The position numbers and the translations under genes are program-made. From assembly GCA_016840085.1 (NCBI GenBank), contig JAEOTA010000041.1:1-47155 (forward strand): DNA of 47,155 nt, written 5' to 3'. Positions 10,585 through 41,019 of this stretch are shown in pieces. This DNA is from Promethearchaeota archaeon. Its GTDB lineage: Archaea; Asgardarchaeota; Lokiarchaeia; Sigyniarchaeales; SOKP01. Numbering within the stretch: the stretch's first letter is position 1; each line of letters starts with the position of its first letter. The notes beneath the pieces were generated by a model, which was not told where the DNA came from, made no database searches, and saw only the letters and a list, made by a program, of their open reading frames with translations.

Positions 10585-10597
10585 AATTTCACCAAAC

Positions 10598-11977: not shown

Positions 11978-12100
11978 ATTTAATCATTTTATAAACTAAT
12001 ATTCAATAATGTAATTAGACAAAAAACAATAAAAAAAGTTTATATTAATATTGAATAAAATCGAAAGGAATTTTCTCTTAAATTATAAAAGATATATAAT

Positions 12101-17624: not shown

Positions 17625-17824
17625 AATTTACTTGTAATTATTTATTTCACCTTATCATATATTAAAGTATTATAAAAAACAACAGTAAAGAAGCAGAACC
17701 TAACTAAATTCCATTATTTATTTTATAGATTATTAGAAAAAGTTTTATTATTAAATGAATGAATTTCATATTAATTTGAAAGTTGATTGCTTCTACTGAG
17801 CAAACAAAGAAAGAGGGAAATAAT

Positions 17825-18949
17825 ATTCGATTACTTGAATATGAAAGCAAAAGAATTTTCAGTAAATTTGGGATTCCTTTAGCAAACAATATAATTATTG
17901 AAAAGGGAGAAAATATAGAAGAAAAAATAAAGCAATTCACATTTCCTGCAATTGTTAAGTCTCAAATCGCTATTGGAAGTCGAAAGAAAGCTGGATTGAT
18001 AAAAATAGCTAATTCTAAGGAGGAAGCAAAATCTCTCTGTAATGAATTTTTTAATAAAGAAGTTGCTGGTTACCAAGTAGAGGCTATTCTTATAGAAGTA
18101 TTAGCTCAAATTGACCATGAATATTATTGCTCAATCGCCTTAGATGCATCAAGGAGACAATTTTTTATTATTGCAAGTAAAAAAGGTGGAATTGACATTG
18201 AAGAGATATCTAAAACCAATCCTGAAGCAATAATAAAGGAAAGTTTTACTTTAAGTGGAGGCTTATCAGAAGATCTCGCTAAAAAAGTTTCAAAACAGTT
18301 AGGCTTTACAGGAGAGCTCTTGGATTCTACAATAAATTTATTTAAAAAATTATGGGAAATTACTAAAAGCGTTGAAGCACAGCTTGTAGAGATAAATCCG
18401 TTAGTTCTTACTCCTTCTGGATTAGTAGCAGTTGATGGTAAAATGATATTAGATGATGATACTGCATTTCGACAACCAATCGTTCAAGAGTTACAAAACA
18501 AAAAACTTACATCATTAGAAAAATTAGCGAAAGAAGCTGGTTTTTCATTTGTAGAACTCTCTGGTGATATTGGTATTTTAGCAAATTGAGCTGGATTAAC
18601 AATGGCATTATTGGATGTTTTATCAGAATTAGGATTAAAACCTGCAAATTTTTTAGATGTAGGCGGTGGAGCAAGTAAAGAACGGGTATATAGCGCTTTA
18701 GAATTGTTATTTAAAATGAACCCTAAAGCAGTATTAGTAAATATTTATGGTGGCATTACTCGATGTGATGTAGTTGCAGAAGCCATAATTCAAGCATTAG
18801 AGGATTTTAAAGATAATCCTCCTATGGTAATAAGATTAACTGGCACAAATGATAAAGAAGGAATCGCCCTTCTTAATGATGCAGGAATTACTGCTTTTCA
18901 AAATGTAATAGATGCTATACAAAAAGTAAAAGAGGTTATAGGGGGATAA
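17825..18949 (+). pseudogene. sucC: Succinyl-CoA synthetase beta-like subunit interrupted by an in-frame TGA (18587-18589)
   Basis: The two ORFs are in one frame: GILAN*AGLTMA versus conserved NGAGL; also GGIDIEE, EINPL, PANFLDVGGGA, GGITRCD, RLTGTN. The expected Met position is ATT (17825); an upstream TTG lies at 17783. Confidence 0.8.
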
Positions 18950-22205: not shown

Positions 22206-23693
22206 ATGTCTAAATTTATTGCCTTTGATATTGGCGCAAGTTCAGGTAGAACAATTGTTGGGGAATTAGAAAAAGCTCTTCTCCATTTAGATGAGATTCA
22301 CAGATTTCAGAATAAGGGAGTTCAAATTGATACTAATTTATACTGGAACGTTTTACAGCTCTATATAGAAATATTAAATGGACTGAAAAAGTATGTAGAA
22401 AAATATGGTAAAATTGTAGATGGAATAGGAATTGATACTTGGGGTGTTGATTTTGTCCTTCTGGATAAGAATGATGAACTCATTGGATACCCTTATCATT
22501 ATCGAGATTTAAGGACTAAAGGTATGCTTAAAAAAATGTTTAAGAAAGTACCAATGGAAGATATTTTTTCAGAAACAGGAATACAATTTATGGAGCTCAA
22601 TAGCTCAACTCAGTTATACTCAATGATTTTTAACAATTCTTCCCAATTATCCATTACGGATACTCTCTTGATGGTTCCAGATTATCTAAATTTCTTATTA
22701 TCAGGTAAAAAATTAACTGAATATTCTATAGCCACTACATCTCAATTATTTAATCCAATTAAAAATAATTGGGCATTTTCATTAATAGAACAATTAGGTT
22801 TAAAACCTAATTGGTTTAGAAGTATTATTCCTTCTGGAACACTCTTAGGAACTATAAAAGATTATATAGCTAAAGAAGTTGGATTAGATACCAATACTAA
22901 GATTATAGTACCTGCTTCTCATGACACAGGTTCGGCAGTTGCTGCAGTTCCAGTAGATATGGAAATCTATCTAAATGGAGAATGGGCTTATTTGAGCTCA
23001 GGAACGTGGAGTCTTTTGGGTGTCGAATTAGACCGTCCATTAATTAACAAAAAAGTGTTAGAATATAATTTTACAAATGAGGGTGGAATCAATAACACAA
23101 TAAGATTCTTAAAAAATATAACAGGAATGTGGTTGATTCAAGAATGCAAACGATTATGGGATAATAAGGGACTAGATTTAACTTGGGAGGATATTATCTT
23201 AGAAGCAAAAAAAGCTCCAGCATTTCAGTATTTTATCAATCCGAATAATTCGAAGTTTTTAAACCCAAGAAATATGATAAACGCTATTCAAGAATATTGT
23301 AAAGAAAGTAATCAAGATTCCCCCAGAACTGTAGGAGAAATTTCTAGAACTATTTTTGAAAGCCTTTCCTTTACGTATAAATCTGTTATGGAAAAATTGG
23401 AAGAATTATTAAATAAAAAAATAAAAATACTTCATATCATCAGTGGTGGTTCTTCAAACACTCTATTAAATCAATTTACCGCTAATATTCTCGATATTCC
23501 TATTAGAACGGGACCGGTCGAGGCAACCGCAATAGGAAATATTTTAACTCAAGCATATGCATTAGGAGAAATTAATAATATTTATGAACTAAGAGCAATT
23601 GTTAAAAATTCCTTTGAAATTAAGACGTATAGTCCCAAAAATTCAGAAGAATGGAACATTTTTTATTGTAAGTATAAAAGGTTCATAAAATAA
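22206..23693 (+). CDS. rhaB: FGGY sugar kinase, rhamnulokinase type (probable L-fuculo/rhamnulokinase)
   Basis: DIGASSGR, IDTWGVD, HDTGSAV, SSGTWSL, TNEGG, GPVEATAIGN. Confidence 0.85.
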   Translation: MSKFIAFDIGASSGRTIVGELEKALLHLDEIHRFQNKGVQIDTNLYWNVLQLYIEILNGLKKYVEKYGKIVDGIGIDTWGVDFVLLDKNDELIGYPYHYRDLRTKGMLKKMFKKVPMEDIFSETGIQFMELNSSTQLYSMIFNNSSQLSITDTLLMVPDYLNFLLSGKKLTEYSIATTSQLFNPIKNNWAFSLIEQLGLKPNWFRSIIPSGTLLGTIKDYIAKEVGLDTNTKIIVPASHDTGSAVAAVPVDMEIYLNGEWAYLSSGTWSLLGVELDRPLINKKVLEYNFTNEGGINNTIRFLKNITGMWLIQECKRLWDNKGLDLTWEDIILEAKKAPAFQYFINPNNSKFLNPRNMINAIQEYCKESNQDSPRTVGEISRTIFESLSFTYKSVMEKLEELLNKKIKILHIISGGSSNTLLNQFTANILDIPIRTGPVEATAIGNILTQAYALGEINNIYELRAIVKNSFEIKTYSPKNSEEWNIFYCKYKRFIK

Positions 23694-23783
23694 ATTTATA
23701 ATAATTGGAATTAAATTTTCTAATTTATTAATAAAAATAAATGATAATGTATCCTAACACTCTTGTAAGGCTTTAATTTGCAA

Positions 23784-25145
23784 TTATTTCAACTTTTCTC
23801 TTTTCTCACTATGGATTTTTCTCAAATCTTCTTGCAATTTTTCTAGAATGTCACCATGAAGTGGATAAAAATATATGAAAATAAGCCCAATCGCCGAAAC
23901 TATTATGGGGATTAAAAACATTAATATTTTTATCCCAATTATGGCGGAATCCGGCTGTATATCAGCTCCTTGAACAAAACCAAATGTCGTTAGAATCACT
24001 GTCGCTATTATGGGTCCTAGACTTTGAGCAGGTTTATGGAATAGCGCGTTAATTCCTAGAAACATACCTTCTCTTCGTGAACCATGTTCTAATTCATCTT
24101 TATCGACAGATAAATATAGAAGGGGGGTGTTAAATATTGTATATCCTCCAAAAAATGTTAAAACAGTCAAACCAATAATTGTAATTATCGGGTCATCAAC
24201 AAATAATACAGTCAAAAATAAAACAAAAGTACCAGTTACCTTAATTATTCCAAATCTTAGCATTATCCTTCGCATTCCCCACTTCGAACGTAATTTTATA
24301 CAAATCATATTTGAACTATATCCAATGATAATAATTATTACAAAATAATAGAGTAAGCCACCCTCACCAAGTATAAATAGATAAGCAAATAAATAACTTA
24401 ATCCTATTGAACCTAGAAATGCATTACAAAAGATATAGCCGATGTAGATTAAAAATGGCTTTGATTTTACAGTCTCCTTTACTGCTGTCCATAAAGGAGG
24501 TGGTTTATCTTTTTGAAATTCTGGTTTTTCTTTGCATAAATATGCTGTTAACCAAAGTAGTATGAGAGATAAGATAGCAACAATTATCATTAAGAATAAA
24601 TATTTGGTTGAAGTTGGATCAATATCTCCTAAAATTAGTAAAAATGGAATAACTACTAGGGCTCCTATGAATAGTGCAAAGAAATTACCTTTATTTCTTT
24701 CATCCAAATCTGAAGTCATCTCTGGTAATAATGCCATCCAAACAAGAACAACCAGAGTAAAAAAGGTATCAAATAAACATATGCTGATTATGTAATGAAA
24801 AAAAATAATGATTTGATTCTCAAAATCCCATGGAATCCATACTAAAAGAAAGCTAAAAATCCAAAGTGGAGCTCCATATTTTATATAGATTATTCTTCGG
24901 CTTCCCCACTTTTCTCTATTAGTTTTATCTGAAAGTTGTCCTAATAAAGGATCGTTAAATGCATTTATAACCATATATATGACTTGCCCAATAATAAAAA
25001 AAACCGGATTCAATTGTAATTTGTCATAAAAAAATTCAATATACTTAAGAGAAAATATAAATACTAATAATCCTGCAGGAATTGCTCCTAAGGAATATCC
25101 CCATAAATTTCGAGAACTAAGTTGTCTTTCTGTTTTGTTTTCCAT
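23784..25145 (-). CDS. MFS transporter, GPH/MelB family
   Basis: NAFNDPLLGQLSD, DEL..G.RREG.F.G motifs; about 12 TM segments. Confidence 0.88.
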   Translation of the reverse strand: MENKTERQLSSRNLWGYSLGAIPAGLLVFIFSLKYIEFFYDKLQLNPVFFIIGQVIYMVINAFNDPLLGQLSDKTNREKWGSRRIIYIKYGAPLWIFSFLLVWIPWDFENQIIIFFHYIISICLFDTFFTLVVLVWMALLPEMTSDLDERNKGNFFALFIGALVVIPFLLILGDIDPTSTKYLFLMIIVAILSLILLWLTAYLCKEKPEFQKDKPPPLWTAVKETVKSKPFLIYIGYIFCNAFLGSIGLSYLFAYLFILGEGGLLYYFVIIIIIGYSSNMICIKLRSKWGMRRIMLRFGIIKVTGTFVLFLTVLFVDDPIITIIGLTVLTFFGGYTIFNTPLLYLSVDKDELEHGSRREGMFLGINALFHKPAQSLGPIIATVILTTFGFVQGADIQPDSAIIGIKILMFLIPIIVSAIGLIFIYFYPLHGDILEKLQEDLRKIHSEKREKLK

Positions 25146-25257
25146 AAGAATAAAAATTACTATTTATTATATTTTAAAATTTGAAAATTGATAATAATTG
25201 AATTTATCAATTTATAAAGGTTTATTTAAAACTATAAAGACTAAAAAAATAAGAGCA

Positions 25258-26748
25258 CTATTTAATATCTAACCATACTTTTCGAAAGCTATTCATCGGC
25301 GCAAATTCAACCTTAGGGTGAACTCCTAACATCATGGTTGCACGCTTTTGAATATCATAAGGAGGCCATTCTGGTTGGCCTTTATGATTTGGGTTTCCTG
25401 TACGTGCAAAACTTATCCATGTATCCATTATATTTTTAGCCACTGTTTCTGCCTCTTCAATAGAGTCTATTGCTCCTTCTGGTATATCTGCAGTTTTGAA
25501 AGTCCCAAAAACAAATGGAATTTCAAATGTATGATAAGCCCCTCCATATTTAGATGATTTATAAGTAAAAATATAACAAAAAACATTGGATTGATGTTCT
25601 AAATGCGCCTTAAGTTGGCGAATAGTTGGAATTCCAAACATAGCATCAGAAAGTATTGCATCCCAATGCTTATATGCATTATCTGGATATTTTGTTTTCA
25701 TTATTGGTTTATAAACCTTAAGCAATTTGTCTATTCCATCATCAGTTACTCCATAATTGCGGATACGAGATCGTATCATCCCAATTATAATTTTTTTCCT
25801 CTCCTCATTAACTTGATTAAGAAAATTTCCAATAATTCCTAATTCATCTTCATTCCAACCAAGCATTAAAGGAACTTTACTTGCATTTCCTTTTCTTATA
25901 ATTTCATAAGGTTTTTCTGGGATTATTACTCCATCTACAAATGGTCTGAATGGATTTTCTTTGCCATCAGTTATAGTTCCAGCTATTTTTTTTTGAACTC
26001 TTATTAATTTACTAATTTGAACTTCTCGTAAGGTCTTAATATCCTCTCGATCAATGTGGAATTTTGATACAAGCTCTTTAGCACCTTTTCTTGATAGCTC
26101 TCTTTTATAAGAAAGTGGATTTGCTACGCCACTTTGCATAATTGCTCTGTGAAATAAACCTTTAGCTAATGGAATTGAAAGCAGAATTACAACCGATTCA
26201 CTTCCCGAAGATTCTCCGAAAATCGTAATATTATTTGGATCTCCGCCAAATGCATGAATATTCTCTCGAACCCATTGTAAAGCTGCAATTTGATCTTGAA
26301 TTCCTATATTAGGAGGAATATTTGGTAAATCAAGAAAACCTAAGGCGCCTAAGCGATAATTAAAAGTAACTAGAACAACATCCCCATAGGATGCTAATGT
26401 TCCCCCATTCAATCTTGGTCTAGAGCCAGCACCTATGAGGAACCCACCACCATGAATCCAAAACATGACGGGTCTAACTTTTTCATCCGCGCCTGGAGTC
26501 CAAATGTTAAGATATAGGCAATCCTCATTTTCCTCTTGTTCAATCGGTGTGGAATCTATATGATTTTGAGGTGCGATTGGTCCAAATTTTGTAGCATCTT
26601 TGATACCGTCCCAAGGATCCATAGGTTGTGGTTCACAAAAGCGTAAATCACCTATAGGAGGTTTTGCATAGGGAAGACCTAAGAAACACCGATGATCTAA
26701 TTGTTGAATTCCTTTTATCTTTCCATAATTAGTTGATAGAATTACCAT
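25258..26748 (-). CDS. Type B carboxylesterase (PnbA-like)
   Basis: GLPYA.PP.G.LRF, EDCLYLNIW, WIHGGG, NYRLG, FGESSG, AYHTFEI. Confidence 0.9.
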   Translation of the reverse strand: MVILSTNYGKIKGIQQLDHRCFLGLPYAKPPIGDLRFCEPQPMDPWDGIKDATKFGPIAPQNHIDSTPIEQEENEDCLYLNIWTPGADEKVRPVMFWIHGGGFLIGAGSRPRLNGGTLASYGDVVLVTFNYRLGALGFLDLPNIPPNIGIQDQIAALQWVRENIHAFGGDPNNITIFGESSGSESVVILLSIPLAKGLFHRAIMQSGVANPLSYKRELSRKGAKELVSKFHIDREDIKTLREVQISKLIRVQKKIAGTITDGKENPFRPFVDGVIIPEKPYEIIRKGNASKVPLMLGWNEDELGIIGNFLNQVNEERKKIIIGMIRSRIRNYGVTDDGIDKLLKVYKPIMKTKYPDNAYKHWDAILSDAMFGIPTIRQLKAHLEHQSNVFCYIFTYKSSKYGGAYHTFEIPFVFGTFKTADIPEGAIDSIEEAETVAKNIMDTWISFARTGNPNHKGQPEWPPYDIQKRATMMLGVHPKVEFAPMNSFRKVWLDIK

Positions 26749-26808
26749 ATTTTTTAAAAATGAGACGTTTCTTAAATCATATTATAGTATTTAAAAAAAA
26801 ATTAACAA

Positions 26809-28635
26809 TTGGCTTGGACAAATAAGTATATGGAAGGTATGAATAATCAATTTTTAAAGGTAAACTTAACTGATGAAAAAATTTCAGTGCATCCCCTTAA
26901 TAATGAAAGTCTCGAAAATTTTTTAGGGGGAAGAGGATTAGGTATAAAATTGTTATCAGAGAATATTTCAAAAGGAATTGAATCCCTGTCAAAAGAAAAT
27001 CCACTAATATTTTCAATAGGCCCTATTACGGGAAGTACAGTTCCAACAAGTGGTCGATTTTCCTTAGTTACTAAATCTCCATTAACAAACACAATATTTC
27101 ATTCAAATTCAGGAGGATATTGGGGTCCTTATTTTAAGCGATGTGGATATGATTGTTTATATATTTATGGGAAATTAAATGATGATGATAAAGGTTATGT
27201 TCTTATTGATGGCACTGATAAGGTAGAGGTTAAAGATGCTACTGATTTATGGGGATTAAATACAATAGAAACTGTTGAAAAATTAAAAGAGTTTGAGGGT
27301 AAGAATTGTCATGTACTATGTATAGGTCCTGCTGGTGAACATTTGGTTAAATTAGCCTCAATAATGAATGATGCACATAGAGCTTTTGGAAGAGGAGGAG
27401 TAGGGGCAGTGATGGGTTCAAAAAACCTAAAAGCAATCGTTGTTAAGAATGGTACTAAGAAATTTCCTATAAAAAATAAAGGTTATATGAAAAAATTAAA
27501 TGTTATAGCTCTAGATAAAATTAAAGTCACTCCTATAACTTCTCAAGGATTAGCACTTTTAGGAACTGCTGCGTTAGTAAAAGTTATTAACCTTTTTGGT
27601 ATGTTCCCCATTAGAAATTTCCAAATTGCTTTTACTGATTCTTCTAAAATAGATTTGGTTAGTGGTGAACTGTTAAGAGACAAATTTTTTGTAGAAAATG
27701 AAGGATGTTATAATTGTGTTATTAGGTGTGGTAGAATAACTGATACGGGAGTAATGAGTGGCAAAGGTCCTGAATATGAATCCCTATGGGCATTAGGTCC
27801 TTTAATAGGAATATTTGACCTAAAAGAAATTGCTCATGCGAATTACTTATGCAATAATTATGGGTTAGATACAATATCAACGGGAAGTACAATAGCTTGT
27901 GCTATGGAATTACGGCAAAAAGGGATTATTAATAATTCCTCTTTAAAATTTGGAAATAAAGATAACCTTTGTCGCATTATTGAAAAAATGGCTTTACGAA
28001 AAGATATAGGAAATGAATTAGCAGAAGGATCTCTTAGGTTTGCTAAAAGTTATTCTGCCCAAAATTATGCCATGCAAGTAAAAGGATTAGAAATCCCCGC
28101 TTATGATCCTCGAGGAGCTGTTGGACATGCATTAAACTATGCGGTCAGTTCAAGGGGTGCATGTCATTTAACTGGATTTTTAGTTGCCTTAGAAATTTTA
28201 GGTGTACCAAAACTTATTGATAGATTTTCAATTAATGGCAAATCTGATCTTTTGTTTTTAAAACAAAATCAGAGTGCGGTTGAAGATTCACTTATCATCT
28301 GCAAATTCGTTGGATACGCTTTGGGATTTGAGTTTCAAGCAAGATTTTTAAGTACAATATTAGATAAAAAAATAAACATAACTGATCTAATTACTATTGG
28401 AGAAAGAATTTACACATTGGAAAGATTATTTAATGTGAGAGAAGGTTTTACAAGAGAAGATGATACATTACCGCCTAGATTTTTAAAAGTTCCTCTAAAA
28501 GAGGGAGTATCAAAAGGAAAAATAGTGTCACTCGAACAATTACTAAGAGATTACTATAAAGTAAGGCAATGGGATGAGAATGGTATCCCTTCAGATGAAT
28601 TACTTGAAAGATTATCCATCAAAAGACTAGAATAA
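26809..28635 (+). CDS. aor: Tungsten/molybdenum aldehyde:ferredoxin oxidoreductase
   Basis: GGRGLG, KSPLT, CIGPAGE, GRGGVGAVMGSKNLKA, CYNCVIRC, PEYESL, GLDTIS, YDPRG, RGACH; real start may be ATG 26830 or 26839. Confidence 0.92.
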   Translation: MAWTNKYMEGMNNQFLKVNLTDEKISVHPLNNESLENFLGGRGLGIKLLSENISKGIESLSKENPLIFSIGPITGSTVPTSGRFSLVTKSPLTNTIFHSNSGGYWGPYFKRCGYDCLYIYGKLNDDDKGYVLIDGTDKVEVKDATDLWGLNTIETVEKLKEFEGKNCHVLCIGPAGEHLVKLASIMNDAHRAFGRGGVGAVMGSKNLKAIVVKNGTKKFPIKNKGYMKKLNVIALDKIKVTPITSQGLALLGTAALVKVINLFGMFPIRNFQIAFTDSSKIDLVSGELLRDKFFVENEGCYNCVIRCGRITDTGVMSGKGPEYESLWALGPLIGIFDLKEIAHANYLCNNYGLDTISTGSTIACAMELRQKGIINNSSLKFGNKDNLCRIIEKMALRKDIGNELAEGSLRFAKSYSAQNYAMQVKGLEIPAYDPRGAVGHALNYAVSSRGACHLTGFLVALEILGVPKLIDRFSINGKSDLLFLKQNQSAVEDSLIICKFVGYALGFEFQARFLSTILDKKINITDLITIGERIYTLERLFNVREGFTREDDTLPPRFLKVPLKEGVSKGKIVSLEQLLRDYYKVRQWDENGIPSDELLERLSIKRLE

Positions 28636-28678
28636 TAATTATATTTAAATGTTAATGAAATCTTAATTGAGGTATATA

Positions 28679-29290
28679 ATGATTGATCCTGAAACATATA
28701 AGCAATTTAAAATTACGGGTAAGATTTTAACGGATCACAGATATAATACGTCCCATTCCGGAAATATTAGTATGAGATCAGGAGGTAAGATCCTCATTAA
28801 GCGAAGAGGGGCAATGCTTGGATATTTAGAACCAGAAGACATAATTGAAACAGATCTTTATACTACAGATTCAGGAATTATGTTATCAAGTACGGAAACG
28901 GACGTTCATCGTCAAATTTATTTGAACACAGATGCCATGGCTATAATTCATGCTCATAATCCTTTCTGTGTTATCTTATCACTTATTGAAGATGAAATCA
29001 CTTGTCTTGATGCTGAAGGGATATATATGTATAGAAAGATCCCTATCATTGAAGTTGAAAATCCTGCAGGACCTACTGACGCGGCAAGAGAAGTACCAAA
29101 AGTTCTTAAAGATTATCCAATAGTTGTGGTGAGAGCACATGGAGTTTTTGCTAAAGGAAATACATTGTATGATGCGCTCCAAAATGTCACTGGAGCTGAA
29201 CAATCCGCAATGATAAGATACTATACGATGTCATCAGGTAAACCATTAAAAAGAGATTATTCTAAAGAGAAGTATTTCTCAGAATGGTAA
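28679..29290 (+). CDS. fucA: Class II aldolase, L-fuculose-1-phosphate aldolase-like
   Basis: SGNIS, SSTE..VH..IY, IIHAH and AHG Zn ligands; GAGGT precedes ATG 28679; adjacent to fucI. Confidence 0.8.
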   Translation: MIDPETYKQFKITGKILTDHRYNTSHSGNISMRSGGKILIKRRGAMLGYLEPEDIIETDLYTTDSGIMLSSTETDVHRQIYLNTDAMAIIHAHNPFCVILSLIEDEITCLDAEGIYMYRKIPIIEVENPAGPTDAAREVPKVLKDYPIVVVRAHGVFAKGNTLYDALQNVTGAEQSAMIRYYTMSSGKPLKRDYSKEKYFSEW

Positions 29291-29370
29291 AAAAATAAAT
29301 TTTTATAGTATTAACTTTCAAAATTATAATCCAATATAAATTTATTATTACAGAATCAAATTATAATAAG

Positions 29371-31185
29371 GTGTTAAAATTGGAAAAACATATAGGAGTA
29401 AAAAGGCTTAGAGGATCTATTCCTAAAATCGGCATTCGTCCTACGATTGATGGAAGAGAAAAAGGTGTACGCGAATCGTTAGAAGAGCAAACTTTAGGGA
29501 TGGCTCAATCTGTAGTAGAGTTATTATCTAGTAATTTAAGGCACCCTAATGGATTGCCAGTTGAATGTATTATCGCAGATACAACAATCGGAGGGATTGC
29601 TCAAGCAGCTATTTGTGCTGAGAAATTTAAAAGAGAAAATGTAGGTCTATCTATAACAGTAACACCTTGTTGGTGCTATGGATCAGAAACAATGGATATT
29701 AATCCTTATATACCCAAAGCAATTTGGGGTTTTAATGGAACTGAAAGACCTGGTGCTGTTTATCTTGCGGCAGTTTTGGCTGCTCACGCGCAAAAAGGTC
29801 TACCCGCGTTTGGTATCTATGGAAAAGATGTTCAAGATGAAGATGACACAAGTATTCCTGAAGATGTTGAAGAAAAAATTTTACGATTTGCGAGAGCAGG
29901 CTTAGCTGTAGCATGGATGAGGGGAAAATCATATTTATCTATAGGTGGAGTATCAATGGGGATTGCAGGTTCGATAGTTAATGAAAAATATTTTCAGGAT
30001 TATCTCGGGATGAGAAATGAATATGTAGATATGTCCGAAATTTCTAGAAGATTAAGCGAAAAAATTTATGACTATGAAGAATTCAACAGCGCTATAAAAT
30101 GGGTTAGAAAAAATTGTAAAGAGGGAAAAGATACAAATCCCCCTGAAGTTCAAAAATCAAGAGAACAGAAGGATCAAGAATGGGAAATTATGGTCAAGAT
30201 GACAATGATTTGTAGAGACCTTATGATTGGTAATCCTAAATTAAAAGAATTAGGATTCGGAGAGGAATCATTAGGACATAACGCTATAGCTGCAGGTTTC
30301 CAAGGACAACGCCATTGGACAGACTTTATGCCAAATGGAGATTTTACAGAAACAATTTTAAACAGCTCCTTTGATTGGAATGGTATTAGGCAACCTTATA
30401 TTCTAACGACTGAAAATGATGCCTTAAATGGTATTGCGATGTTATTTGGGCACCTTTTAACTCAAACATCTCAGATTTTCGCAGATGTGAGAACTTATTG
30501 GAGTCCAGAAGCAGTTAAACGTGTTACTGGTAAAGTCTTATCTGGTAAGGCAGAAAATGGATTAATTCACCTAATTAATTCCGGTTCCGCAACAATAGAC
30601 GGTACAGGACTACAAGAGATTAATGAAAAGCCTGCTTTAAAGCCATTTTGGCAAATAATTGAGGATGAGGTTGAGAAATGTTTAACAGCTACAAAATGGG
30701 ATGCGGCAATTCACGAGTATTTCCGTGGGGGAGGTTTTTCCTCTAATTTTTTAACAAGGGGAGAAATGCCAATGACCTTATCACGAGTAAATATTATTAA
30801 AGGAATTGGATTAGTACTTCAATTGGCAGAAGGATGGGCAATCAATATTCCAGAGGAAATTCATAGAATTTTAGATGATCGCACAAATAATACATGGCCG
30901 ACAACTTGGTTTGTACCAAGATTAACAAGCGAGGGAGCCTTTCAAACAGTCTATGATGTCATTAATAAATGGGGCGCAAATCATGGTTCATTATGTTATG
31001 GTCATATCGGTTCTGATCTAATTACCCTTGCATCGATGTTAAGAATTCCAGTGTGTATGCATAATATTCAGAAGGTCAGCATATTTAGACCAAGTACATG
31101 GAATGGTTTTGGAACAGAAGATTTGGAAAGTGCCGATTTTCGTGCCTGTGCAAATTTTGGACCTCTCTATGGTAATTTCAAATAA
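29371..31185 (+). CDS. fucI: L-fucose isomerase
   Basis: [67 protein letters not shown]. Confidence 0.95.
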
Positions 31186-31214
31186 AATTTAATATATAAT
31201 TACGTTGTAATAGT

Positions 31215-32588
31215 GTGTTAAAAAAAATGAACTATACTTCTGAGAAAGACTCAATAAAGAACCATCAAGTTCCCAAATGGTTTCACGATGCTAAGCTTGG
31301 CATTTTTATCCATTGGGGGCTCTTTTCTGTTCCCGCATTTGCGGTTGGAAAATTTGATTTAGGAGAATCCATGAAAAGAGGAATTGAAGAGCATTTTAAA
31401 AATAATCCGTATGCTGAATGGTATTTAAATTCTTTAAGAATTGCTGGAAGTCCAACTCAAAAATTTCATAAGGAAAATTATGGAGATAACTTTTCTTACG
31501 ATGATTTTGTCCCTATATTTAATGATGAAATAAAAAAATGGAATCCGGATGAAATGGTTGATTTATTTAAAAGAGCAGGTGCTAAATATGCTGTTCTTGT
31601 TACAAAACATCATGACGGGTTCTTACTATGGCCAAGTAAACACCCCAATCCCAAAAAGGAAGGTTATCATGCAAGACGTAATATAGTCGGTGAGCTTAGT
31701 AAAGCGGTTAAAAAAAAAGGATTAAAGATGGGATTTTACTATTCTGGAGCATTAGATTGGTCTTGGACTCCGAATCCAATTAAAGATGGTAAGAGTTTTT
31801 TAACAAATGGTCCAAGTGAAATTGAATATACTCATTATGCTAACAACCATTGGTATGAGTTAATTGATGATTATGACCCTATTATCTTATGGAATGATAT
31901 AGGATATCCACCAAATACAAATGTTTATGAAATTTTCGCATATTTTTATAACAAACATCCCGACGGTGTAATTAATGATAGATGGAGGCAATATCATAAA
32001 TCTGAAATAAAGCATCCTAAAGTTAAGCATTGGGACTTTACAACTCCAGAATATGCAATGATGCCAAATATAACTGATTATAAATGGGAAAGTACTCGTG
32101 GAATTGGCTACTCCTTTGGATATAATAAAATGGAGGATGATGACGATTATCTTAATTCGGAAAAATTAATACGAATGTTTATAGACATCGTAAGTAAAAA
32201 TGGAAATCTTTTACTTAATGTTGGACCTATGGCGGATGGTACAATACCAGAACCGCAAAAGAAAGCAATATTGGGTCTTGGAAAATGGCTTGATCTAAAT
32301 AATGAAGCAATATTTGGAACTCGACCTTGGAAAAGAGCAGAGGGAAAAACTATAGATGATATTGATCTAAGATTTACAAAGAAAAATGATGAATTATACA
32401 TACATCTATTAGATAAACCACAAGGAAATACCATAACAATCCTATCACTAAATTTAGCAGAGTCCAAAAAAATACAGTTATTAGGTGATAAAGGGAATCT
32501 AAAATGGAAACAAGATGGTGAAAACATTGTGGTTTCTTTACCAGAAGATTTATCTGAATCTGCTGCTTATGTTTTAAAAATATTTTAA
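31215..32588 (+). CDS. Alpha-L-fucosidase, GH29
   Basis: P.WF.DAKLGIFIHWG, AEWY, TKHHDGF, LWND nucleophile, INDRW, VSKNGNLLLNVGP; no signal peptide apparent. Confidence 0.93.
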   Translation: MLKKMNYTSEKDSIKNHQVPKWFHDAKLGIFIHWGLFSVPAFAVGKFDLGESMKRGIEEHFKNNPYAEWYLNSLRIAGSPTQKFHKENYGDNFSYDDFVPIFNDEIKKWNPDEMVDLFKRAGAKYAVLVTKHHDGFLLWPSKHPNPKKEGYHARRNIVGELSKAVKKKGLKMGFYYSGALDWSWTPNPIKDGKSFLTNGPSEIEYTHYANNHWYELIDDYDPIILWNDIGYPPNTNVYEIFAYFYNKHPDGVINDRWRQYHKSEIKHPKVKHWDFTTPEYAMMPNITDYKWESTRGIGYSFGYNKMEDDDDYLNSEKLIRMFIDIVSKNGNLLLNVGPMADGTIPEPQKKAILGLGKWLDLNNEAIFGTRPWKRAEGKTIDDIDLRFTKKNDELYIHLLDKPQGNTITILSLNLAESKKIQLLGDKGNLKWKQDGENIVVSLPEDLSESAAYVLKIF

Positions 32589-32610
32589 ATCTACCTTTTT
32601 TCATTTTCGG

Positions 32611-35304
32611 TTAGCTAGAAAACTCATAATAACCTGAACCAATATTAAACACCACATAATTATCCTCTTTTGACTTAAAGGTTATGCCTAAATGACCTGG
32701 TTCTTTTTCCCCGTTATCCCATATAACATTATTACCCTCTTTAATAATGGGATCTTTATCTTTAATTGGAACCCACACTTCAGCATCACACCCAACAGGA
32801 ACGATTACAGTAAGCTTGAAATTTAAATCTTTTTTCTCCCATGCACTGTAAATTAGCCCTTTAATTGTATTTAGTTTTGCTTGAGCAAAATTCATATCTT
32901 CTGATATAAATGGTTTTATTCTAAATATTTCCCATCCAGGTGTTAAAGATTTAATTCCGGCTATTGTTTTATAAAACCATGTATCTACTGATCCAAGCAT
33001 AATGTGATTGTGTGAATTCATCCCTGAGCTTTCAAGTTTTTCCCACCTTTCCCATAAGGTAGTTGCCCCTTCTCTTATCATATAACCGTAACTGGGAAAA
33101 CTCTTTTGATTTATCATCTTATATGCGATTTCAGGGTATCCATTATCAGATAGCACTTCAAAAATATATCTCGTTCCCACAATCCCGGTGTCAATGTGAT
33201 AATCATAATGCCCCTTTATAGCTTCTATGAGGTAATTCAATATCGACTTTTCTTTATTTTCTGGAACCATATTTAGGTAAAGTGGAAGGACATTTGCTGT
33301 TTGACTTATCGCCCCATCCGTAAAGGATACTTTAATATATTTATAAGTACGCATTAGAAATTCTCTATTAAAATCATTCTTAATTTCTTCTGCCTTTTCA
33401 GAGTATTCATTGCAATCACTGTCATTGCTTAAGATTTTTGCAATTTTTGAAAATATTAATGTATCATGATAATAATACCAGGTTGAAACCAAATCCAACG
33501 GCGTTCTTTTTGAAACGATACACATTGGAGGGCACCAATCACCATATTTACTTCCTACTGACAGAATATTGTCTTTAGCGTTGCTATAAAGAAAATCGAT
33601 ATAATTTTTCAATGATTCATAATGTTCTTTAAGTATTTCTATGTCATTATAATACCAGTACATATACCATGCTATTGTGATATAAGCGGAACCCCATGCA
33701 GGATCAGCAGGATATATAGGCCAATAAGGAGGAACTACATCAGAGAGACTACCATTTTCCTTTTGGGATAACTTTATATCTCGCAAATATTTAGTATAGA
33801 AACGTGCCATATCAAAATTTAACATCGCCTCCTCACTTACAAGTTGTGCATCTCCCATCCATCCATGTCTTTCATCCCTCTGTGGACAATCTGTTGGAAT
33901 GCTCATTAAATTACTTAACTGCCCCCAAATGATATTTGTATGAATCTTATTGATTAAATCATTAGAGCAAATGAATTCACTTACCTTAGGTACATTACTA
34001 TGGAAAAAATATCCTTCAATAGATTCTTTTGATGGAACACCTGGATATCCTGTCAACTCAACATATCTAAATCCATGATAAGTGAATTGAGGTTGATATA
34101 TTTCTTCTCCTTCTCCTTTAAGAATATAAATCTCGTTTACGGAGGCATTTCTATTAGTAGCATAATTTAAAGTCCCATCTTCTTTTAAAATTTCAGCAAA
34201 TTTTAAAGTTACTTGACATCCTCTAGGCCCTCGGACTTTTAAGCGGACAAATCCTGTAAAATTTTGACCAAAATCATAAACATACATTCCAGATTGAGGA
34301 CTGTCTATTTTTTTAGGTTTCATAATTTTTGTTATGCGGATAGGTTGCATTAACTGGGAAGCTAAATTATAACCCTCGACTACAGATACGTTATCCCATG
34401 CAGAATCCTCAAACTTTGGTTTGTCCCATCCTGGCATTTCAAATCGAGCATCGTATTTCTCACCATAATAGATTCCATTCTCTAAAATTGGTCCAGTTGA
34501 TACTTTCCAACTCTCGTCAGTACATATAATTCCGCTTGTACCATCTGTATATTGTATTTGAATCTGTACAATGAGTTTAGGGTAATCATACCCATAAAGT
34601 TCAACACATCGCACATTTCCTAATATCACTCCAATGGCGTTGCTTTCTTGCAGATCATTAGAAATATCATAGGTGGAATAGAGTGCAATTTTATTGTAAT
34701 CCGTCTGAGCAGGATCTAATATTCGATCTCCAATTCTGATTCCATTTAATCTCAATACATAATATCCTAATCCGCTTATATAGAGTTTAGCTGTTTCAAT
34801 TGGTTTTTTCACATCAAATTCTTTTCTTAAATAGATTGCATTAACTTCTTTTAATCTACCAAAAAGACCTCTTTGTCCTGATTTATACTGCAAATTTCTC
34901 CTTGTTTGTTTATCAACAAATTCTTTTTTGCTTATCCATTTTGCTTTCCAATCAGATTCTTCTAAAAGTGCCGTTCCAAAAGAAGAAATTTCACTAAAAC
35001 TGCTTTCTGAGCCATCTTTATCCCACCATTTTACACGCCAATAATATATATTATTACTTTTCAATGGTTTGCCATTATATTCTATACTGATATTACTATC
35101 TGAAATAACCTTTCCAGTATCCCACACATCACCTTCCTCTAAACTTGAGAGGGATTCTTCTGAAGAAACAATGATTTGGTAAGCTGATTGAGATTGATTT
35201 CTCTTTTCATGATTTAAAATCCAAGAGAAACGTGGATTTGGTATATCTAATTCGATAGGGTTTTCGAGATATTCACATCTTAAATCAAAAGGAGGTTGAA
35301 TCAT
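32611..35304 (-). CDS. Alpha-L-rhamnosidase, GH78
   Basis: DLRCEYLENP, DFGQN, FTYHGFRY, PTDCPQRDER.GW.GD, GATTLWERW, SHNH. Confidence 0.92.
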   Translation of the reverse strand: MIQPPFDLRCEYLENPIELDIPNPRFSWILNHEKRNQSQSAYQIIVSSEESLSSLEEGDVWDTGKVISDSNISIEYNGKPLKSNNIYYWRVKWWDKDGSESSFSEISSFGTALLEESDWKAKWISKKEFVDKQTRRNLQYKSGQRGLFGRLKEVNAIYLRKEFDVKKPIETAKLYISGLGYYVLRLNGIRIGDRILDPAQTDYNKIALYSTYDISNDLQESNAIGVILGNVRCVELYGYDYPKLIVQIQIQYTDGTSGIICTDESWKVSTGPILENGIYYGEKYDARFEMPGWDKPKFEDSAWDNVSVVEGYNLASQLMQPIRITKIMKPKKIDSPQSGMYVYDFGQNFTGFVRLKVRGPRGCQVTLKFAEILKEDGTLNYATNRNASVNEIYILKGEGEEIYQPQFTYHGFRYVELTGYPGVPSKESIEGYFFHSNVPKVSEFICSNDLINKIHTNIIWGQLSNLMSIPTDCPQRDERHGWMGDAQLVSEEAMLNFDMARFYTKYLRDIKLSQKENGSLSDVVPPYWPIYPADPAWGSAYITIAWYMYWYYNDIEILKEHYESLKNYIDFLYSNAKDNILSVGSKYGDWCPPMCIVSKRTPLDLVSTWYYYHDTLIFSKIAKILSNDSDCNEYSEKAEEIKNDFNREFLMRTYKYIKVSFTDGAISQTANVLPLYLNMVPENKEKSILNYLIEAIKGHYDYHIDTGIVGTRYIFEVLSDNGYPEIAYKMINQKSFPSYGYMIREGATTLWERWEKLESSGMNSHNHIMLGSVDTWFYKTIAGIKSLTPGWEIFRIKPFISEDMNFAQAKLNTIKGLIYSAWEKKDLNFKLTVIVPVGCDAEVWVPIKDKDPIIKEGNNVIWDNGEKEPGHLGITFKSKEDNYVVFNIGSGYYEFSS

Positions 35305-35505: not shown

Positions 35506-36282
35506 ATGGATGAAAAATTTCTTGAAGGGAAAGGGGCAGTAATAACAGGTGGAGCATCTGGATTTGGCAGAGGAGCCGCATATACTCTCACAGAAAAAGG
35601 AGCAGATGTCGTATTAGCTGATATTAATGAAGAACTTCTAGAAGAAACAACAACAAAAGTAGAACAGACGACAACTAAGAAAGTAATCCCGATTGTCTGC
35701 GATGTTTCAATATCCGATCAAGTAAAAGCAATGGCAAAACAAACATTCGAAGAATTAAATAATGTATTTATTTTATTTAATAATGCAGGGACCGCAGATT
35801 ATTCTCTCAGGGATATAACACAAGTAAAGGAAGTAGACTGGGATAGAATATTGAATGTAAATTTGAAAGGACAATGGCTTGTTGCGAATTCTTTATTAAA
35901 AAAAATGAGAAAACAACCGTTTGAGCCTCTTGCTGGAAAAATGATATGTACATCTTCAATGGGTACTAAACAATTATCACCAATACTCCCAACCTATTGT
36001 ATATCAAAAGTTGGTGTCATTGCAATGGCAAAATTATTTGCAAAAGCTTTAGCACCTAAAATAACTGTAAATACAATATTACCTGGTATCCATACTACGG
36101 GCATATATCTAAATTCAGAAGATCTTATAAGAACAATGTTGAAAGCGGGGAATACCAGAATCCCTCTGGGTAGGATTGGGACAGTTGAGGATGTGACAAA
36201 TGTTTTGATGTCTTTAGCATCTCCTGCTTCAGATTATATTACAGGTCAGGAATTTCTTGTTACAGGTGGATTAGCTATTTAA
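35506..36282 (+). CDS. Short-chain dehydrogenase/reductase
   Basis: TGGASGFG, NNAG, YCISK (YxxxK), YITGQ. Confidence 0.9.
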   Translation: MDEKFLEGKGAVITGGASGFGRGAAYTLTEKGADVVLADINEELLEETTTKVEQTTTKKVIPIVCDVSISDQVKAMAKQTFEELNNVFILFNNAGTADYSLRDITQVKEVDWDRILNVNLKGQWLVANSLLKKMRKQPFEPLAGKMICTSSMGTKQLSPILPTYCISKVGVIAMAKLFAKALAPKITVNTILPGIHTTGIYLNSEDLIRTMLKAGNTRIPLGRIGTVEDVTNVLMSLASPASDYITGQEFLVTGGLAI

Positions 36283-37791: not shown

Positions 37792-39084
37792 TTGGCTCAA
37801 AAAAATATATATGAATATGACGCTAAAAAGCTTTTACAGAGCTTATTACCGAAATACTTTCCAAAATTTAACTATCATGAGAAAGTAGCAGTAATAACTA
37901 ATGATATGAGTCTAGAAGAATTAGCTACTAATAATCCTTGGATCAAAACTGATAAGGTTGTGGCTAAACCTGATCAACTTTTTGGAAAGAGGGGTAAGGC
38001 TAATTTAATTTTACTTGATGCGAATTATGATAAATTAAAGGCTTTTTGTAATGAAAAATTAGGGAAGGAATTTCTAATTGGAAATAAAAAGGGAGAATTA
38101 ACACGTCTAATTATTGAACCATTTATCCCTCATAAAAAGGAATATTATGTTTCTATAACATCTGAAAGGTATAATGATGTAATTCATTTTAGTTTTGAAG
38201 GGGGTATATTTATTGAAGAAAATTGGGATAAAGTGACACATATTAAAATTCCTATAGGGATGGATATAAATTCATTTGATTTAAAAAGCAAATTGCCAGA
38301 TTTGGGTGACCTTGCTGAAATTTTAATACCTTTTATAAAAGGGCTTTATCAGGTGTATATAGATCAAGATTTTGCATTTCTTGAAATTAATCCATTTGCT
38401 ATAACTGAAGATAAGGAATTAGTCCCTTTAGACGTGAAAGCCCGATTAGACGACACAGCTATTTTTCTACATGGAGATACATGGGGTAATCCAGAAAACC
38501 CAATAGAATTTCCAGCTGGGTTTGGTCAAACAATGTCGGAAGAAGAAGCAAAAATTCATGAATTAGATGAAAAGACAGGGGCATCTCTAAAATTTACCAT
38601 TTTAAATAGGGATGGAAGGGTATGGACTATGGTTGCAGGGGGTGGTGCTTCAGTTATTTATACTGACACTGTAGTTGATCTTGGATTTGGGGATGAATTA
38701 GGAAATTATGGTGAATATAGTGGTAATCCTTCACGAGAACATACTGAAATCTATGCTCAAACAATTATAGACTTGATAACAGAGAATCCTGATCCCCAAG
38801 GAAAACCAAAATATCTTATTATTGGAGGTGGAATTGCTAATTTTACAGATGTGAAGGCGACGTTTACAGGAATTGTTAGTGCTATTAAAAACTCTATTGA
38901 TAAGCTTAAGAAAGCTAATATTAAAATATTTGTTCGCAGAGGCGGACCTAATGAGAAACAAGGTTTAGAACTTATGAAACATGTCGGCGAAGAAACCGGT
39001 ATTCAAATTGAAGTATATGATAGATATACACACATGACTAGGGTAGTTGAATTAATAAAAAAAGCAGAAGAGGGCAAAACCTAA
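37792..39084 (+). CDS. aclB: ATP-citrate lyase, ATP-grasp/citrate-binding subunit
   Basis: KPDQLFGKRGK, GRVWTMVAGGGASVIY.D, NYGEYSG, IGGGIANFTDV, RRGGPN. Confidence 0.92.
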   Translation: MAQKNIYEYDAKKLLQSLLPKYFPKFNYHEKVAVITNDMSLEELATNNPWIKTDKVVAKPDQLFGKRGKANLILLDANYDKLKAFCNEKLGKEFLIGNKKGELTRLIIEPFIPHKKEYYVSITSERYNDVIHFSFEGGIFIEENWDKVTHIKIPIGMDINSFDLKSKLPDLGDLAEILIPFIKGLYQVYIDQDFAFLEINPFAITEDKELVPLDVKARLDDTAIFLHGDTWGNPENPIEFPAGFGQTMSEEEAKIHELDEKTGASLKFTILNRDGRVWTMVAGGGASVIYTDTVVDLGFGDELGNYGEYSGNPSREHTEIYAQTIIDLITENPDPQGKPKYLIIGGGIANFTDVKATFTGIVSAIKNSIDKLKKANIKIFVRRGGPNEKQGLELMKHVGEETGIQIEVYDRYTHMTRVVELIKKAEEGKT

Positions 39085-39102
39085 TAAAGAGGAGATATAA
39101 AA

Positions 39103-40938
39103 ATGGAAGATTACGATTTGTTTGATGAAAATACCCAGGCTATTATTTATGGTTTTCAAGCAAGAGCCATACAAAGAATGTTAGATTTTGATTATGTCTG
39201 CAAAAGAGAAAAACCTTCAGTTGCTGCGGTAATTCGCCCGACTCAAGCTGCTGCTGTTGCGTATCATAAAGTATTTTGGGGATCAAATGAGATTGTTGTA
39301 CCCGTATATAAGACATTGCAATTAGCTATTAGAAACCATTCTAGTGCTGATGTCATGGTAAATTTTGCTTCATTTCGATCTGCATATCCTACAAGTAAAG
39401 AAGCACTTGAATCTGAGACAATTCGGACTGTTGCCATTATTGCAGAAGGTTTACCAGAAAGACAAACTAGGCATTTGATCAAAATTGCTAATGAAAGAAA
39501 TAAAGTAATTATTGGTCCTGCAACAGTAGGCGGAATTAAAGCTGGTACTTTTAAGATCGGAAACACTGCTGGAACTATTGAAAATATCGAGTTATCTAAA
39601 CTTTATAGACCCGGTTCGGTAGGATTTGTATCTAAATCTGGTGGTTTATCAAATGAAATGAACTTCATGATTTCTCAAACAACAGATGGAATTTATGAAG
39701 GAATAGCTATTGGGGGAGATAGATATCCAGGATCTCAATTAATTGACCATATATTACGTTATGAAGCTAATCCCAATATTAAAATGCTAGTTGCATTAGG
39801 AGAAATTGGGGGAAAAGATGAATATGCGATTATAGATGCTATTAAAGCCGGAACTATTACTAAACCATTAGTAATTTGGGTTGCTGGAACGGGAGCACGG
39901 ATTCTTCCAGCAGGACTACAATTTGGACACGCAGGAGCTATGGCAGGAAGTGATATGGAAACTGCAGAAGCAAAAAATAAAGCTCTTAGGGAAGCTGGAG
40001 CAATTGTTCCCGAATCTTATGAAAACTTAGATAAAATGATTAGGCAAACATTTGAAAATTTAGTAAAAGAAGGGAAAGTTAAGCCAGCTGAAGATTTTGA
40101 ACCACCAAAAGTACCATTAGATTTTAATGATGCTACAAGATTAGGTGTAGTGAGACGACCTACTGATGTTATTGTATCAATAAGTGATGATAGGGGAGAA
40201 ATTGTTACATTTAATCAGGTTCCCTTGGACATTATTATAAAAGAGAACAAATCGATAGGCTACGTAATAGGTTTGCTCTGGTTTAAACGCGAATTACCAG
40301 ATTTTGCACAACAATATATAGAAATGGTAATTAAACTAACTGCTGATCACGGTCCAGCTGTTTCAGGAGCTCATAATGCGATAATTACTGCTCGAGCAGG
40401 GAAAGATTTAATGTCTGCTTTAGCGAGTGGAATCCTTACAATTGGTCCTCGCTTTGGGGGAGCGGTGTCTGATGCCGCTAAATATTTTAGAGAGGCAATG
40501 CACAAGGAAATGACACCGGTAGAGTTCATGAATTACATGAAAGAAGTTGTGCAAATAAATATCCCGGGAATAGGCCACAGAGTAAAATCAGTTCAAAATC
40601 CTGACATGCGTGTGGTATTGTTAAAAGAATTCATATTCAAGAATTTTCCAAAACATCCTCATTTAGATTATGCTTTAGAAGTGGAAAGTGTTACAACCTC
40701 AAAAAGAAATAACTTAATATTAAACGTTGACGGTTGTATTGGGATTACCTTTTTAGATTTATTAGAAAATTTAGATTACACCAAAGAAGAAATTGAGGAT
40801 GTAATTTACAGTGAAACTTTAAACGGATTATTCGTCTTAGGAAGATCTATTGGGATGATGGGTCATATCTTCGATCAGAAGCGTCAAAGAGCTGGATTGT
40901 TTCGACAACCTTATGATGAAATTTTGTTTACTGAATAA
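39103..40938 (+). CDS. aclA: ATP-citrate lyase, CoA-binding/citryl-CoA lyase subunit
   Basis: MLDFDY.C.R..PSV, NFASFRS, IGPATVGG, QFGHAGA phospho-His, ADHGPAVSGAHN, GIGHRVKS, NVDG. Confidence 0.93.
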   Translation: MEDYDLFDENTQAIIYGFQARAIQRMLDFDYVCKREKPSVAAVIRPTQAAAVAYHKVFWGSNEIVVPVYKTLQLAIRNHSSADVMVNFASFRSAYPTSKEALESETIRTVAIIAEGLPERQTRHLIKIANERNKVIIGPATVGGIKAGTFKIGNTAGTIENIELSKLYRPGSVGFVSKSGGLSNEMNFMISQTTDGIYEGIAIGGDRYPGSQLIDHILRYEANPNIKMLVALGEIGGKDEYAIIDAIKAGTITKPLVIWVAGTGARILPAGLQFGHAGAMAGSDMETAEAKNKALREAGAIVPESYENLDKMIRQTFENLVKEGKVKPAEDFEPPKVPLDFNDATRLGVVRRPTDVIVSISDDRGEIVTFNQVPLDIIIKENKSIGYVIGLLWFKRELPDFAQQYIEMVIKLTADHGPAVSGAHNAIITARAGKDLMSALASGILTIGPRFGGAVSDAAKYFREAMHKEMTPVEFMNYMKEVVQINIPGIGHRVKSVQNPDMRVVLLKEFIFKNFPKHPHLDYALEVESVTTSKRNNLILNVDGCIGITFLDLLENLDYTKEEIEDVIYSETLNGLFVLGRSIGMMGHIFDQKRQRAGLFRQPYDEILFTE

Positions 40939-41019
40939 TTTTATTAAAATTTAATAAAAAAAGCTTTTTACAAATAAAAATCAAAAATAAACATTTAAAA
41001 AAAATTGGAGGAAATTTAA

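Follow-up and report, generated by a model that had tools for sequence, protein, structure and literature searches.

In Escherichia coli, L-fucose and L-rhamnose are degraded by two pathways (FucI-FucK-FucA and RhaA-RhaB-RhaD) in which an isomerase, a 1-kinase and a class II aldolase yield dihydroxyacetone phosphate (DHAP) and L-lactaldehyde, the latter, a toxic by-product, being disposed of by the NAD-linked FucO or AldA. We describe a locus following the same isomerase, 1-kinase and class II aldolase logic in an archaeon of the Lokiarchaeia, on contig JAEOTA010000041.1 of assembly GCA_016840085.1, where a gene for an aldehyde:ferredoxin oxidoreductase (AOR) immediately precedes a FucA-like aldolase gene. 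The entire 47,155-nt contig (C31), hereafter the window, belongs to an assembly of 4.68 Mb in 89 contigs, with a G+C content of about 30%, a completeness of 98.8% and a contamination of 7.6%. Apart from its archaeal host, the locus differs from its E. coli counterparts in several respects. While its FucI is a clear equivalog, its kinase is RhaB-like and not FucK-like, its aldolase is a short 203-aa form scoring below all FucA equivalog cut-offs, and its last step would be carried out by an AOR-family pterin/4Fe-4S enzyme instead of FucO or AldA, neither of which is found in the window or scores above its cut-off anywhere in the genome.

Coupling of an aldolase to an enzyme oxidizing its lactaldehyde product to lactate is known from RhaEW (YuxG) of Bacillus subtilis and Chloroflexus aurantiacus, the loci of which are often extended by lactate-utilization genes (PMC3870299). 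The window resembles RhaEW in that an aldolase is tightly coupled to a putative oxidizing enzyme for lactaldehyde, but RhaEW is a single fused polypeptide with an NAD-dependent short-chain dehydrogenase/reductase (SDR) half, whereas here two genes and a ferredoxin-type oxidoreductase are involved. RhaEW itself was not found in the genome, in which the best match to TIGR02632 scored 125 bits (cut-off 567.75) and covered the SDR part only. Fused aldolase forms longer than 357 aa were not found either, in a search that is weak because long proteins crowd the word index. The proposed route is a known pathway with a non-orthologous replacement of FucO/AldA, and not a new kind of system: it resembles that of E. 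coli up to the aldolase, and RhaEW thereafter, but with a separate ferredoxin-type pterin enzyme.

The AOR of Pyrococcus furiosus (1aor) and other AORs with solved structures (9g7j, 9mqx and 8c0z) share with the window protein the fold family, the domain pair, the cluster cysteines and the catalytic Glu/His columns. The P. furiosus enzyme is tied to amino-acid-derived aldehydes and not to a sugar operon, and its stand-in in our phylogeny is placed outside the clade described below. Another AOR-family tungstoenzyme, WOR1 from Eubacterium limosum, oxidizes lactaldehyde and other aldehydes in vitro; it is electron-bifurcating, using NAD and ferredoxin, and was assigned to lactate metabolism and aldehyde detoxification (PMC11725836). 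WOR1 is not encoded together with an aldolase or deoxy-sugar genes, and the window AOR lacks the flanking genes for partner subunits: Pfam scans of the window open reading frames (ORFs) revealed no electron-transfer or partner-subunit genes beside it, which would fit a simple ferredoxin-coupled AOR. The DHAP shunt of North et al. and Beaudoin et al. reportedly employs a phosphorylase, an MtnA-type isomerase and a class II aldolase in salvage of 5′-deoxyadenosine and methylthioadenosine, with the resulting aldehyde being reduced by an alcohol dehydrogenase. It shares with the present system a class II aldolase splitting a ketose 1-phosphate into DHAP and a small aldehyde, and two relatives of our pair are embedded in such a context, although the window itself has no shunt genes. 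Finally, Williams et al. (2022) proposed for Candidatus Lernaellota that, in the absence of microcompartments, lactaldehyde arising from rhamnose could be detoxified by multiple AORs, a one-sentence inference from gene presence with no gene linkage, clade definition or test (PMC9324843). In a full-text search, which leaves most subscription journals outside its coverage, we found no published account of an AOR encoded within an operon for fucose, rhamnose or the DHAP shunt, nor of the pair or the clade, so that the view that no described fucose pathway has this ending stands within that coverage.

The AOR-aldolase pair and its clade

The AOR gene spans positions 26830..28635 on the plus strand, with a TAA stop codon at 28633-28635. 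The largest ORF begins with a TTG at 26809, and the likely start is the ATG at 26830 (601 aa) or that at 26839 (598 aa, the length of many orthologues). It is separated by a 43-nt spacer (28636..28678) from the aldolase gene (28679..29290, +; PF00596, 104.6 bits), the ATG of which at 28679 is preceded, at a distance of 6 nt, by GAGGT, and yields a product of 203 aa, the same as in orthologues. An earlier note on this DNA, made from the letters and the ORFs, had put the end of aor about 43 nt before fucA; the ORF coordinates make it exactly 43 nt to this ATG, and 31 nt to an upstream TTG at 28667.

The AOR scores well above the cut-offs for both domains of its family (AFOR_N, 248.1 bits, cut-off 29.8; AFOR_C, 429.5 bits, cut-off 27), and among solved structures it comes nearest to 9g7j (524 bits) and 1aor (508 bits), with 9mqx also in the range of 503-524 bits and 8c0z at 419 bits. 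Residues C293, C296, C300, C491, E317 and H446 are invariant across 10 orthologues and align with 9g7j, and we take these four Cys, Glu and His columns to be the 4Fe-4S cluster ligands and catalytic residues of P. furiosus AOR known from the literature on 1aor. An identity with glyceraldehyde-3-phosphate:ferredoxin oxidoreductase (GAPOR) was rejected, the match to NF040818 scoring 49 bits against a cut-off of 1300. Close homologues come from Promethearchaeota, Thorarchaeota and Lokiarchaeota sources, which marks the host as an Asgard archaeon. The nearest paralogue among the approximately 13 AOR-family genes of the same genome is only 39% identical. In the aldolase, E73, H91, H93 and H154, corresponding to the catalytic Glu and three metal-binding His, are invariant across 15 orthologues, and the nearest solved structure is the fuculose-1-phosphate aldolase from Thermus thermophilus (2fk5/2flf). 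The protein misses the curated FucA cut-offs (TIGR01086, 29.6 bits against 400; NF040649, FucA_Meth, 75.4 against 250), its best model being PRK08660, annotated simply as ‘aldolase’ (190 bits, cut-off 203). Its orthologues also carry a nearly invariant C-terminal Trp.

We gathered 80 loci by scanning species genomes with an alignment of aldolase-linked AORs, compared the window proteins by tblastn, and inspected the contigs carrying AOR orthologues (57-87% identity) for gene order. The aldolase gene lies downstream on the same strand in 39/39 non-redundant linked loci, at a median distance of 32 nt and within 100 nt in 34 of them. Linked loci are found in Archaea (Asgard, Bathyarchaeota, Nezhaarchaeales and Thermoplasmata) as well as in Bacteria (Chloroflexota, Bacillota of the families Moorellaceae and Desulfotomaculaceae, Bacteroidales, Firestonebacteria, Actinomycetota and Deltaproteobacteria). 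Over the 39 loci, the identities of the AOR and of the aldolase to the window pair covary (Spearman 0.83), as would be expected if the pair were inherited or transferred as a unit.

The phylogeny comprises 104 AORs in total, drawn from these loci, from the genome under study (11 paralogues) and from relatives in a Thermococci genome. It places all 41 aldolase-linked AORs in one 53-tip clade, with a support in the Shimodaira-Hasegawa-like approximate likelihood ratio test (SH-aLRT) of 99 in the first tree and 94 in the second, while none of the 51 AORs outside it is aldolase-linked. Among the latter is L114, which at 1088 bits to 1aor serves to represent P. furiosus AOR, and in this quick tree with SH-aLRT support only the window AOR does not group with the P. 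furiosus type. A scan for clade signatures identified a single column conserved in 85% or more of the linked AORs but in no more than 15% of the others, Lys458 in the ILGVPK stretch (numbered from the ATG at 26839), which is found in 93% of aldolase-linked AORs and in 7% of the others. An AOR with at least 52% identity occurs in 17 of 251 Asgard genomes, always with the aldolase adjacent, at a gap of 50 nt or less in 16 and of 1087 nt in one, while Asgard AOR paralogues at 47-50% identity have no aldolase neighbour; related genomes not being independent, this count is descriptive and was not subjected to a statistical test. Uniqueness of the linkage to this genome, named beforehand as a finding that would count against the proposal, is contradicted by its occurrence in many archaeal and bacterial phyla, within one clade and without exception among the Asgard AORs of at least 52% identity.

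Two other AOR paralogues in this genome (C24:115063-118142 and C35:33216-36298) are each located about 1.4 kb from an iron-containing alcohol dehydrogenase (Fe-ADH) gene on the same strand. They are sisters in the tree, their terminal branches measuring 0.06 and 0.12 changes per site, and look like a duplicated module of AOR and alcohol dehydrogenase unrelated to the aldolase-linked clade.

Sugar context and the proposed route

We clustered all ORFs located within 7 kb of the pair in 40 linked loci. The commonest neighbours were FGGY kinase (13 loci), FucI (10), GH78 (8), GH29 and the MFS_2 transporter (6 each) and RhaA (5). The order AOR-aldolase-FucI-GH29 recurs in L017, L019 and L021, and in the latter it is extended upstream to SDR-FGGY-AOR-aldolase-FucI, the kinase directly preceding the AOR. 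A rhamnose variant, FGGY-RhaA-AOR-aldolase, is seen in L023, and the order GH4-AOR-aldolase-MFS-fucosidase was also observed among the orthologue contigs. In a Moorellaceae genome record without a metagenome-assembled genome label (L066), the order is FGGY-FucU-FucI-ABC transporter-AOR-aldolase-FGGY, while in L050 and L071 the aldolase is followed by a xylose-isomerase-like TIM barrel and then by FGGY. Since DHAP and L-lactaldehyde are the only cleavage products that the fucose and rhamnose routes have in common, lactaldehyde would be the most economical substrate for the AOR. The fucose role originally ascribed to the pair needs to be qualified: linkage to FucI and FGGY agrees with it, but the pair is not fucose-specific, being found in rhamnose loci and in two loci of S-adenosylmethionine by-product salvage.

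In the window, AOR, aldolase, FucI (29371..31185, +; TIGR01089, 1062.4 bits, cut-off 850; NF008220, 1084 bits) and a GH29 alpha-L-fucosidase (31215..32588, +; PF01120, 300.5 bits, plus Fucosidase_C) are co-oriented, with gaps of 43, 80 and 29 nt. The position of the AOR at the head of the putative fucose operon is a local feature: in the relative L021, SDR and kinase genes precede it on the same strand. Upstream, an 81-nt divergent intergenic region (26749..26829) was read from the sequence as a putative archaeal promoter: it contains an A/T-rich TATA-like run, TTTAAAAAAAA, about 30-40 nt ahead of the AOR ATG, although such runs are common in a genome with about 30% G+C and the promoter assignment may be no more than suggestive.

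The FGGY kinase gene (22206..23693, +; Pfam FGGY_N and FGGY_C) encodes a rhamnulokinase-like product, scoring 505.8 bits with the rhamnulokinase model TIGR02627 (cut-off 527.95) and 125.5 bits with the fuculokinase model TIGR02628 (cut-off 470.9). It is the sole FGGY kinase of the genome and is presumed to be an L-fuculose/L-rhamnulose 1-kinase. The class II aldolase and FucI are likewise single-copy, and RhaA is found alone on contig C4, among glycine-cleavage genes and with no rhamnose neighbours. With the aldolase, kinase and FucI being single-copy and RhaA encoded elsewhere, one aldolase-AOR pair probably serves both fucose and rhamnose. Between kinase and AOR lie a GPH/MFS_2 sugar:cation symporter (23784..25145, -; PF13347, 176 bits), also found in 6 linked loci, and a carboxylesterase of the COesterase family (25258..26748, -; PF00135, 426 bits), divergent from the AOR, which is present at the same position in L017 and L018; L032 also has one. 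Downstream of the fucosidase are a GH78 alpha-L-rhamnosidase (32611..35304, -; five rhamnosidase Pfam domains), also in 8 linked loci, and an SDR oxidoreductase (35506..36282, +; adh_short_C2) of uncertain pathway membership, copies of which, 72-79% identical, occur in L017 and L021, with an SDR also near the cluster in L071. The best explanation of the locus is an accessory island for the use of 6-deoxyhexoses, L-fucose and L-rhamnose.

In such an island, GH29 and GH78 enzymes would release the sugars and the GPH symporter would import them; FucI, together with the RhaA encoded elsewhere, would perform isomerization, the single FGGY kinase would form the ketose 1-phosphate, and the single class II aldolase would split it into DHAP and L-lactaldehyde. 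The AOR would then oxidize L-lactaldehyde to L-lactate, passing two electrons via its 4Fe-4S cluster to ferredoxin, and would thereby substitute for the bacterial NAD-linked FucO/AldA, with neither 1,2-propanediol nor microcompartments being involved. Reduced ferredoxin might be used for H2 production or by a partner organism, and lactate might be converted to pyruvate via a LutA/LutB-type system. A fused LutB-LutA-like gene (LUD, Fer4 and CCG domains) abuts the pair in L024 and L031 and is found near it in L025, and since the genome under study carries paired LutA-like and LutB-like genes on contig C3, as well as a NiFe hydrogenase large subunit, lactate could be converted to pyruvate and reduced ferredoxin to H2 in this organism. 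We regard oxidation of L-lactaldehyde to lactate with ferredoxin as the probable physiological role of the AOR here. The proposal of a lactaldehyde:ferredoxin oxidoreductase, first made in the earlier note, thus gains support from comparative genomics, namely from conservation of the pair, its restriction to one clade and the recurrent FucI/RhaA and FGGY contexts. We infer from these patterns what the substrate is and which way the reaction runs, and likewise the metal (W or Mo), the role of ferredoxin as acceptor, and co-transcription.

Genes of the URO-D/MtaA family adjoin fucosidase or rhamnosidase genes in several Asgard relatives (L019:17191-18219, L021:16521-17489, L017:18649-19836 and L023:18787-20584), in the last case together with a B12-binding protein. 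They might, speculatively, participate in corrinoid-dependent demethylation of O-methylated deoxy-sugars.

Alternative readings

Several points weigh against assigning the AOR to lactaldehyde. The locus set was collected with a query built from linked AORs, and the trees come from a quick search with SH-aLRT support only and no bootstraps. The 43-nt spacer contains an A/T-rich TATA-like run, making separate transcription of the aldolase possible. The tungstate-binding protein WtpA (TIGR03730) was not found in the genome, and as TupA and ModA were not searched for, the metal is not indicated. The 7.6% contamination puts some risk on the whole-genome context, and a search of 18 further genomes of its genus found neither the AOR nor the aldolase, while they are present in 9/21 and 2/3 genomes of two sister genera. 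This distribution marks the island (22206-35304) as accessory, or else as a recent acquisition; among the relatives, L017 is syntenic with the window. Mis-binning was checked with an ATP-citrate lyase (ACL) subunit, the best match of which is from the same genus (83%), a result that is non-discriminating, since identities are 78-83% across genera. The genus with the closest aldolase lacks ACL, which argues against that genus being the source of the contig.

The substrate range provides the next point. Characterized AORs are broad-spectrum (PMC11725836), so that ‘lactaldehyde-specific’ may overstate the case. In locus L040 (Bacillota UBA2595; 5977-12877), the pair is flanked by genes for PNP_UDP_1, an IF-2B/MtnA-type isomerase, S-adenosylhomocysteine (SAH) hydrolase (AdoHcyase) and an amidohydrolase, and locus L101 (Nezhaarchaeales; 2181-8846) has the phosphorylase (PNP) and SAH hydrolase families in common with it. 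We take this neighbour set to represent DHAP shunt genes for 5′-deoxyadenosine and methylthioadenosine. The aldolase of that shunt releases acetaldehyde or methylthioacetaldehyde, and it is one of these that the AOR would oxidize in the L040/L101 context. Because these two loci sit in S-adenosylmethionine by-product salvage, the most fitting definition of the pair is a broader one, an aldolase together with an oxidoreductase that acts on the aldehyde set free by it, lactaldehyde being the case in this window.

Taken further, the same observations would make the AOR a generic aldehyde scavenger with no preference for lactaldehyde, handling it along with glycolaldehyde (from D-arabinose or ribulose 1-phosphate), acetaldehyde and methylthioacetaldehyde. 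The two genes would then be a portable cassette of a ketose-1-phosphate aldolase and an aldehyde remover, serving whichever pathway they adjoin. Besides the salvage-type neighbours in L040 and L101 and the broad spectrum of characterized AORs (PMC11725836), such an enzyme would agree with several pairs lacking any sugar gene within 7 kb, and with Lys458 alone separating the linked clade at the 85%/15% level. Sugar-pathway genes are nevertheless by far the commonest neighbours, and the only upstream enzymes in the window are FucI and the kinase, the product of which, once cleaved by the aldolase, would be lactaldehyde. We therefore consider a generic scavenger unlikely in this window, and as an idea it is more of a refinement of the lactaldehyde assignment than a contradiction to it.

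The idea that lactaldehyde is taken by an NAD(P)-linked enzyme, either encoded elsewhere or represented by the neighbouring SDR, bears on the earlier statement that FucO, AldA and microcompartment genes are lacking. For the locus it holds, as Fe-ADH, Aldedh and microcompartment proteins were all missing from a Pfam scan of window ORFs of at least 100 aa (bar a few that are small or nested). For the organism it does not, since the genome contains 6 Fe-ADH matches, one interrupted by a stop codon and five intact, and 2 Aldedh genes, none of them at the locus. One of the latter, a CofA-like aldehyde dehydrogenase (ALDH) at C2:5723-7231, is matched best in NCBIfam by the model for methanogen lactaldehyde dehydrogenase (468.6 bits, cut-off 650). 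This enzyme and the five intact Fe-ADHs, partially similar to FucO (at most 231 bits against its cut-off of 523), could also take lactaldehyde; both are to be counted against the AOR. The best score in the genome against NF007497 (PRK10090, ‘aldehyde dehydrogenase’), which we take to be the AldA-type model, was 328.6 (cut-off 500). Microcompartment shell proteins (PF00936) gave no match in the genome at its 98.8% completeness, while controls matched; diol dehydratase (PF02286) gave none either, but since control genomes also matched nowhere, this is uninformative.

If one of these enzymes or the SDR, which recurs near the cluster, were in charge of lactaldehyde, the AOR would have another job, such as reduction of carboxylic acids or oxidation of amino-acid-derived aldehydes, and its adjacency to the aldolase would reflect common regulation only. 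The candidates, though, all score below curated cut-offs and lack a sugar context, the CofA-like ALDH adjoining methylmalonyl-CoA mutase and hydrolase genes, and the window SDR is only generically similar to the RhaW domain (91.9 bits against the TIGR02632 cut-off of 567.75). A bypass of this kind is possible but offers no explanation for the fixation of the pair in so many phyla and inside one clade, and we judge it improbable that it deprives the AOR of its role. Hardly credible is a reverse reaction, in which the AOR would reduce lactate with reduced ferredoxin and lactaldehyde would be condensed by the aldolase with DHAP into deoxy-ketose phosphates, or be converted to propanediol: AOR reactions are reversible in principle, and AOR and Fe-ADH are paired on contigs C24 and C35 of the same genome, but the operon has catabolic glycosidases, a symporter, an isomerase and a kinase, the locus has no alcohol dehydrogenase, and reduction of an acid by ferredoxin is thermodynamically uphill.

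Other genes of the window and implications

The contig that harbours the sugar island also carries genes for aconitase, class II fumarase, both ATP-citrate lyase subunits and isocitrate dehydrogenase (5896-7836, 10598-11977 and 37792-42213). At 17783-18949, a SucC-like ligase is split between two ORFs, one for the ATP-grasp part (268 aa) and one for the Ligase_CoA part (115 aa), preceding SucD, a thiolase, a DUF35-like protein and an SCP2 protein. A HEPN and nucleotidyltransferase pair (15351-16168) and a PIN (VapC-like) gene (43216-43623) constitute ordinary toxin-antitoxin-type modules.

As a more far-reaching and tentative proposal, which we hold to be possible though somewhat doubtful, the pair may represent a portable two-gene module, spread horizontally between Archaea and Bacteria and closing any ketose-1-phosphate pathway (fucose, rhamnose or the DHAP shunt) with an acid and reduced ferredoxin. 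Its AOR would then belong to the first AOR clade with an assigned class of physiological substrates, and the two proteins might form a physical channelling unit like the fused RhaEW; a complex prediction, with each partner given as an alignment, scored 0.11 against a mark of 0.32, which speaks neither for nor against such a unit.

To our knowledge, most AOR-family enzymes have no known physiological substrate, and a clade in which gene order couples the AOR to one particular aldolase allows a substrate to be assigned in a testable way. If the assignment is true, anaerobic fermentation of fucose and rhamnose would have a different redox and product balance, with lactate or pyruvate and low-potential electrons for H2 in place of 1,2-propanediol and microcompartments, and this would affect how carbon from the deoxy-sugars of algae, plants and mucin moves through sediments and guts. 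The same module is also suggested to act in salvage of S-adenosylmethionine by-products. Asgard archaea, for their part, would possess a bacterial-style phosphorylative deoxy-sugar route suited to syntrophy.

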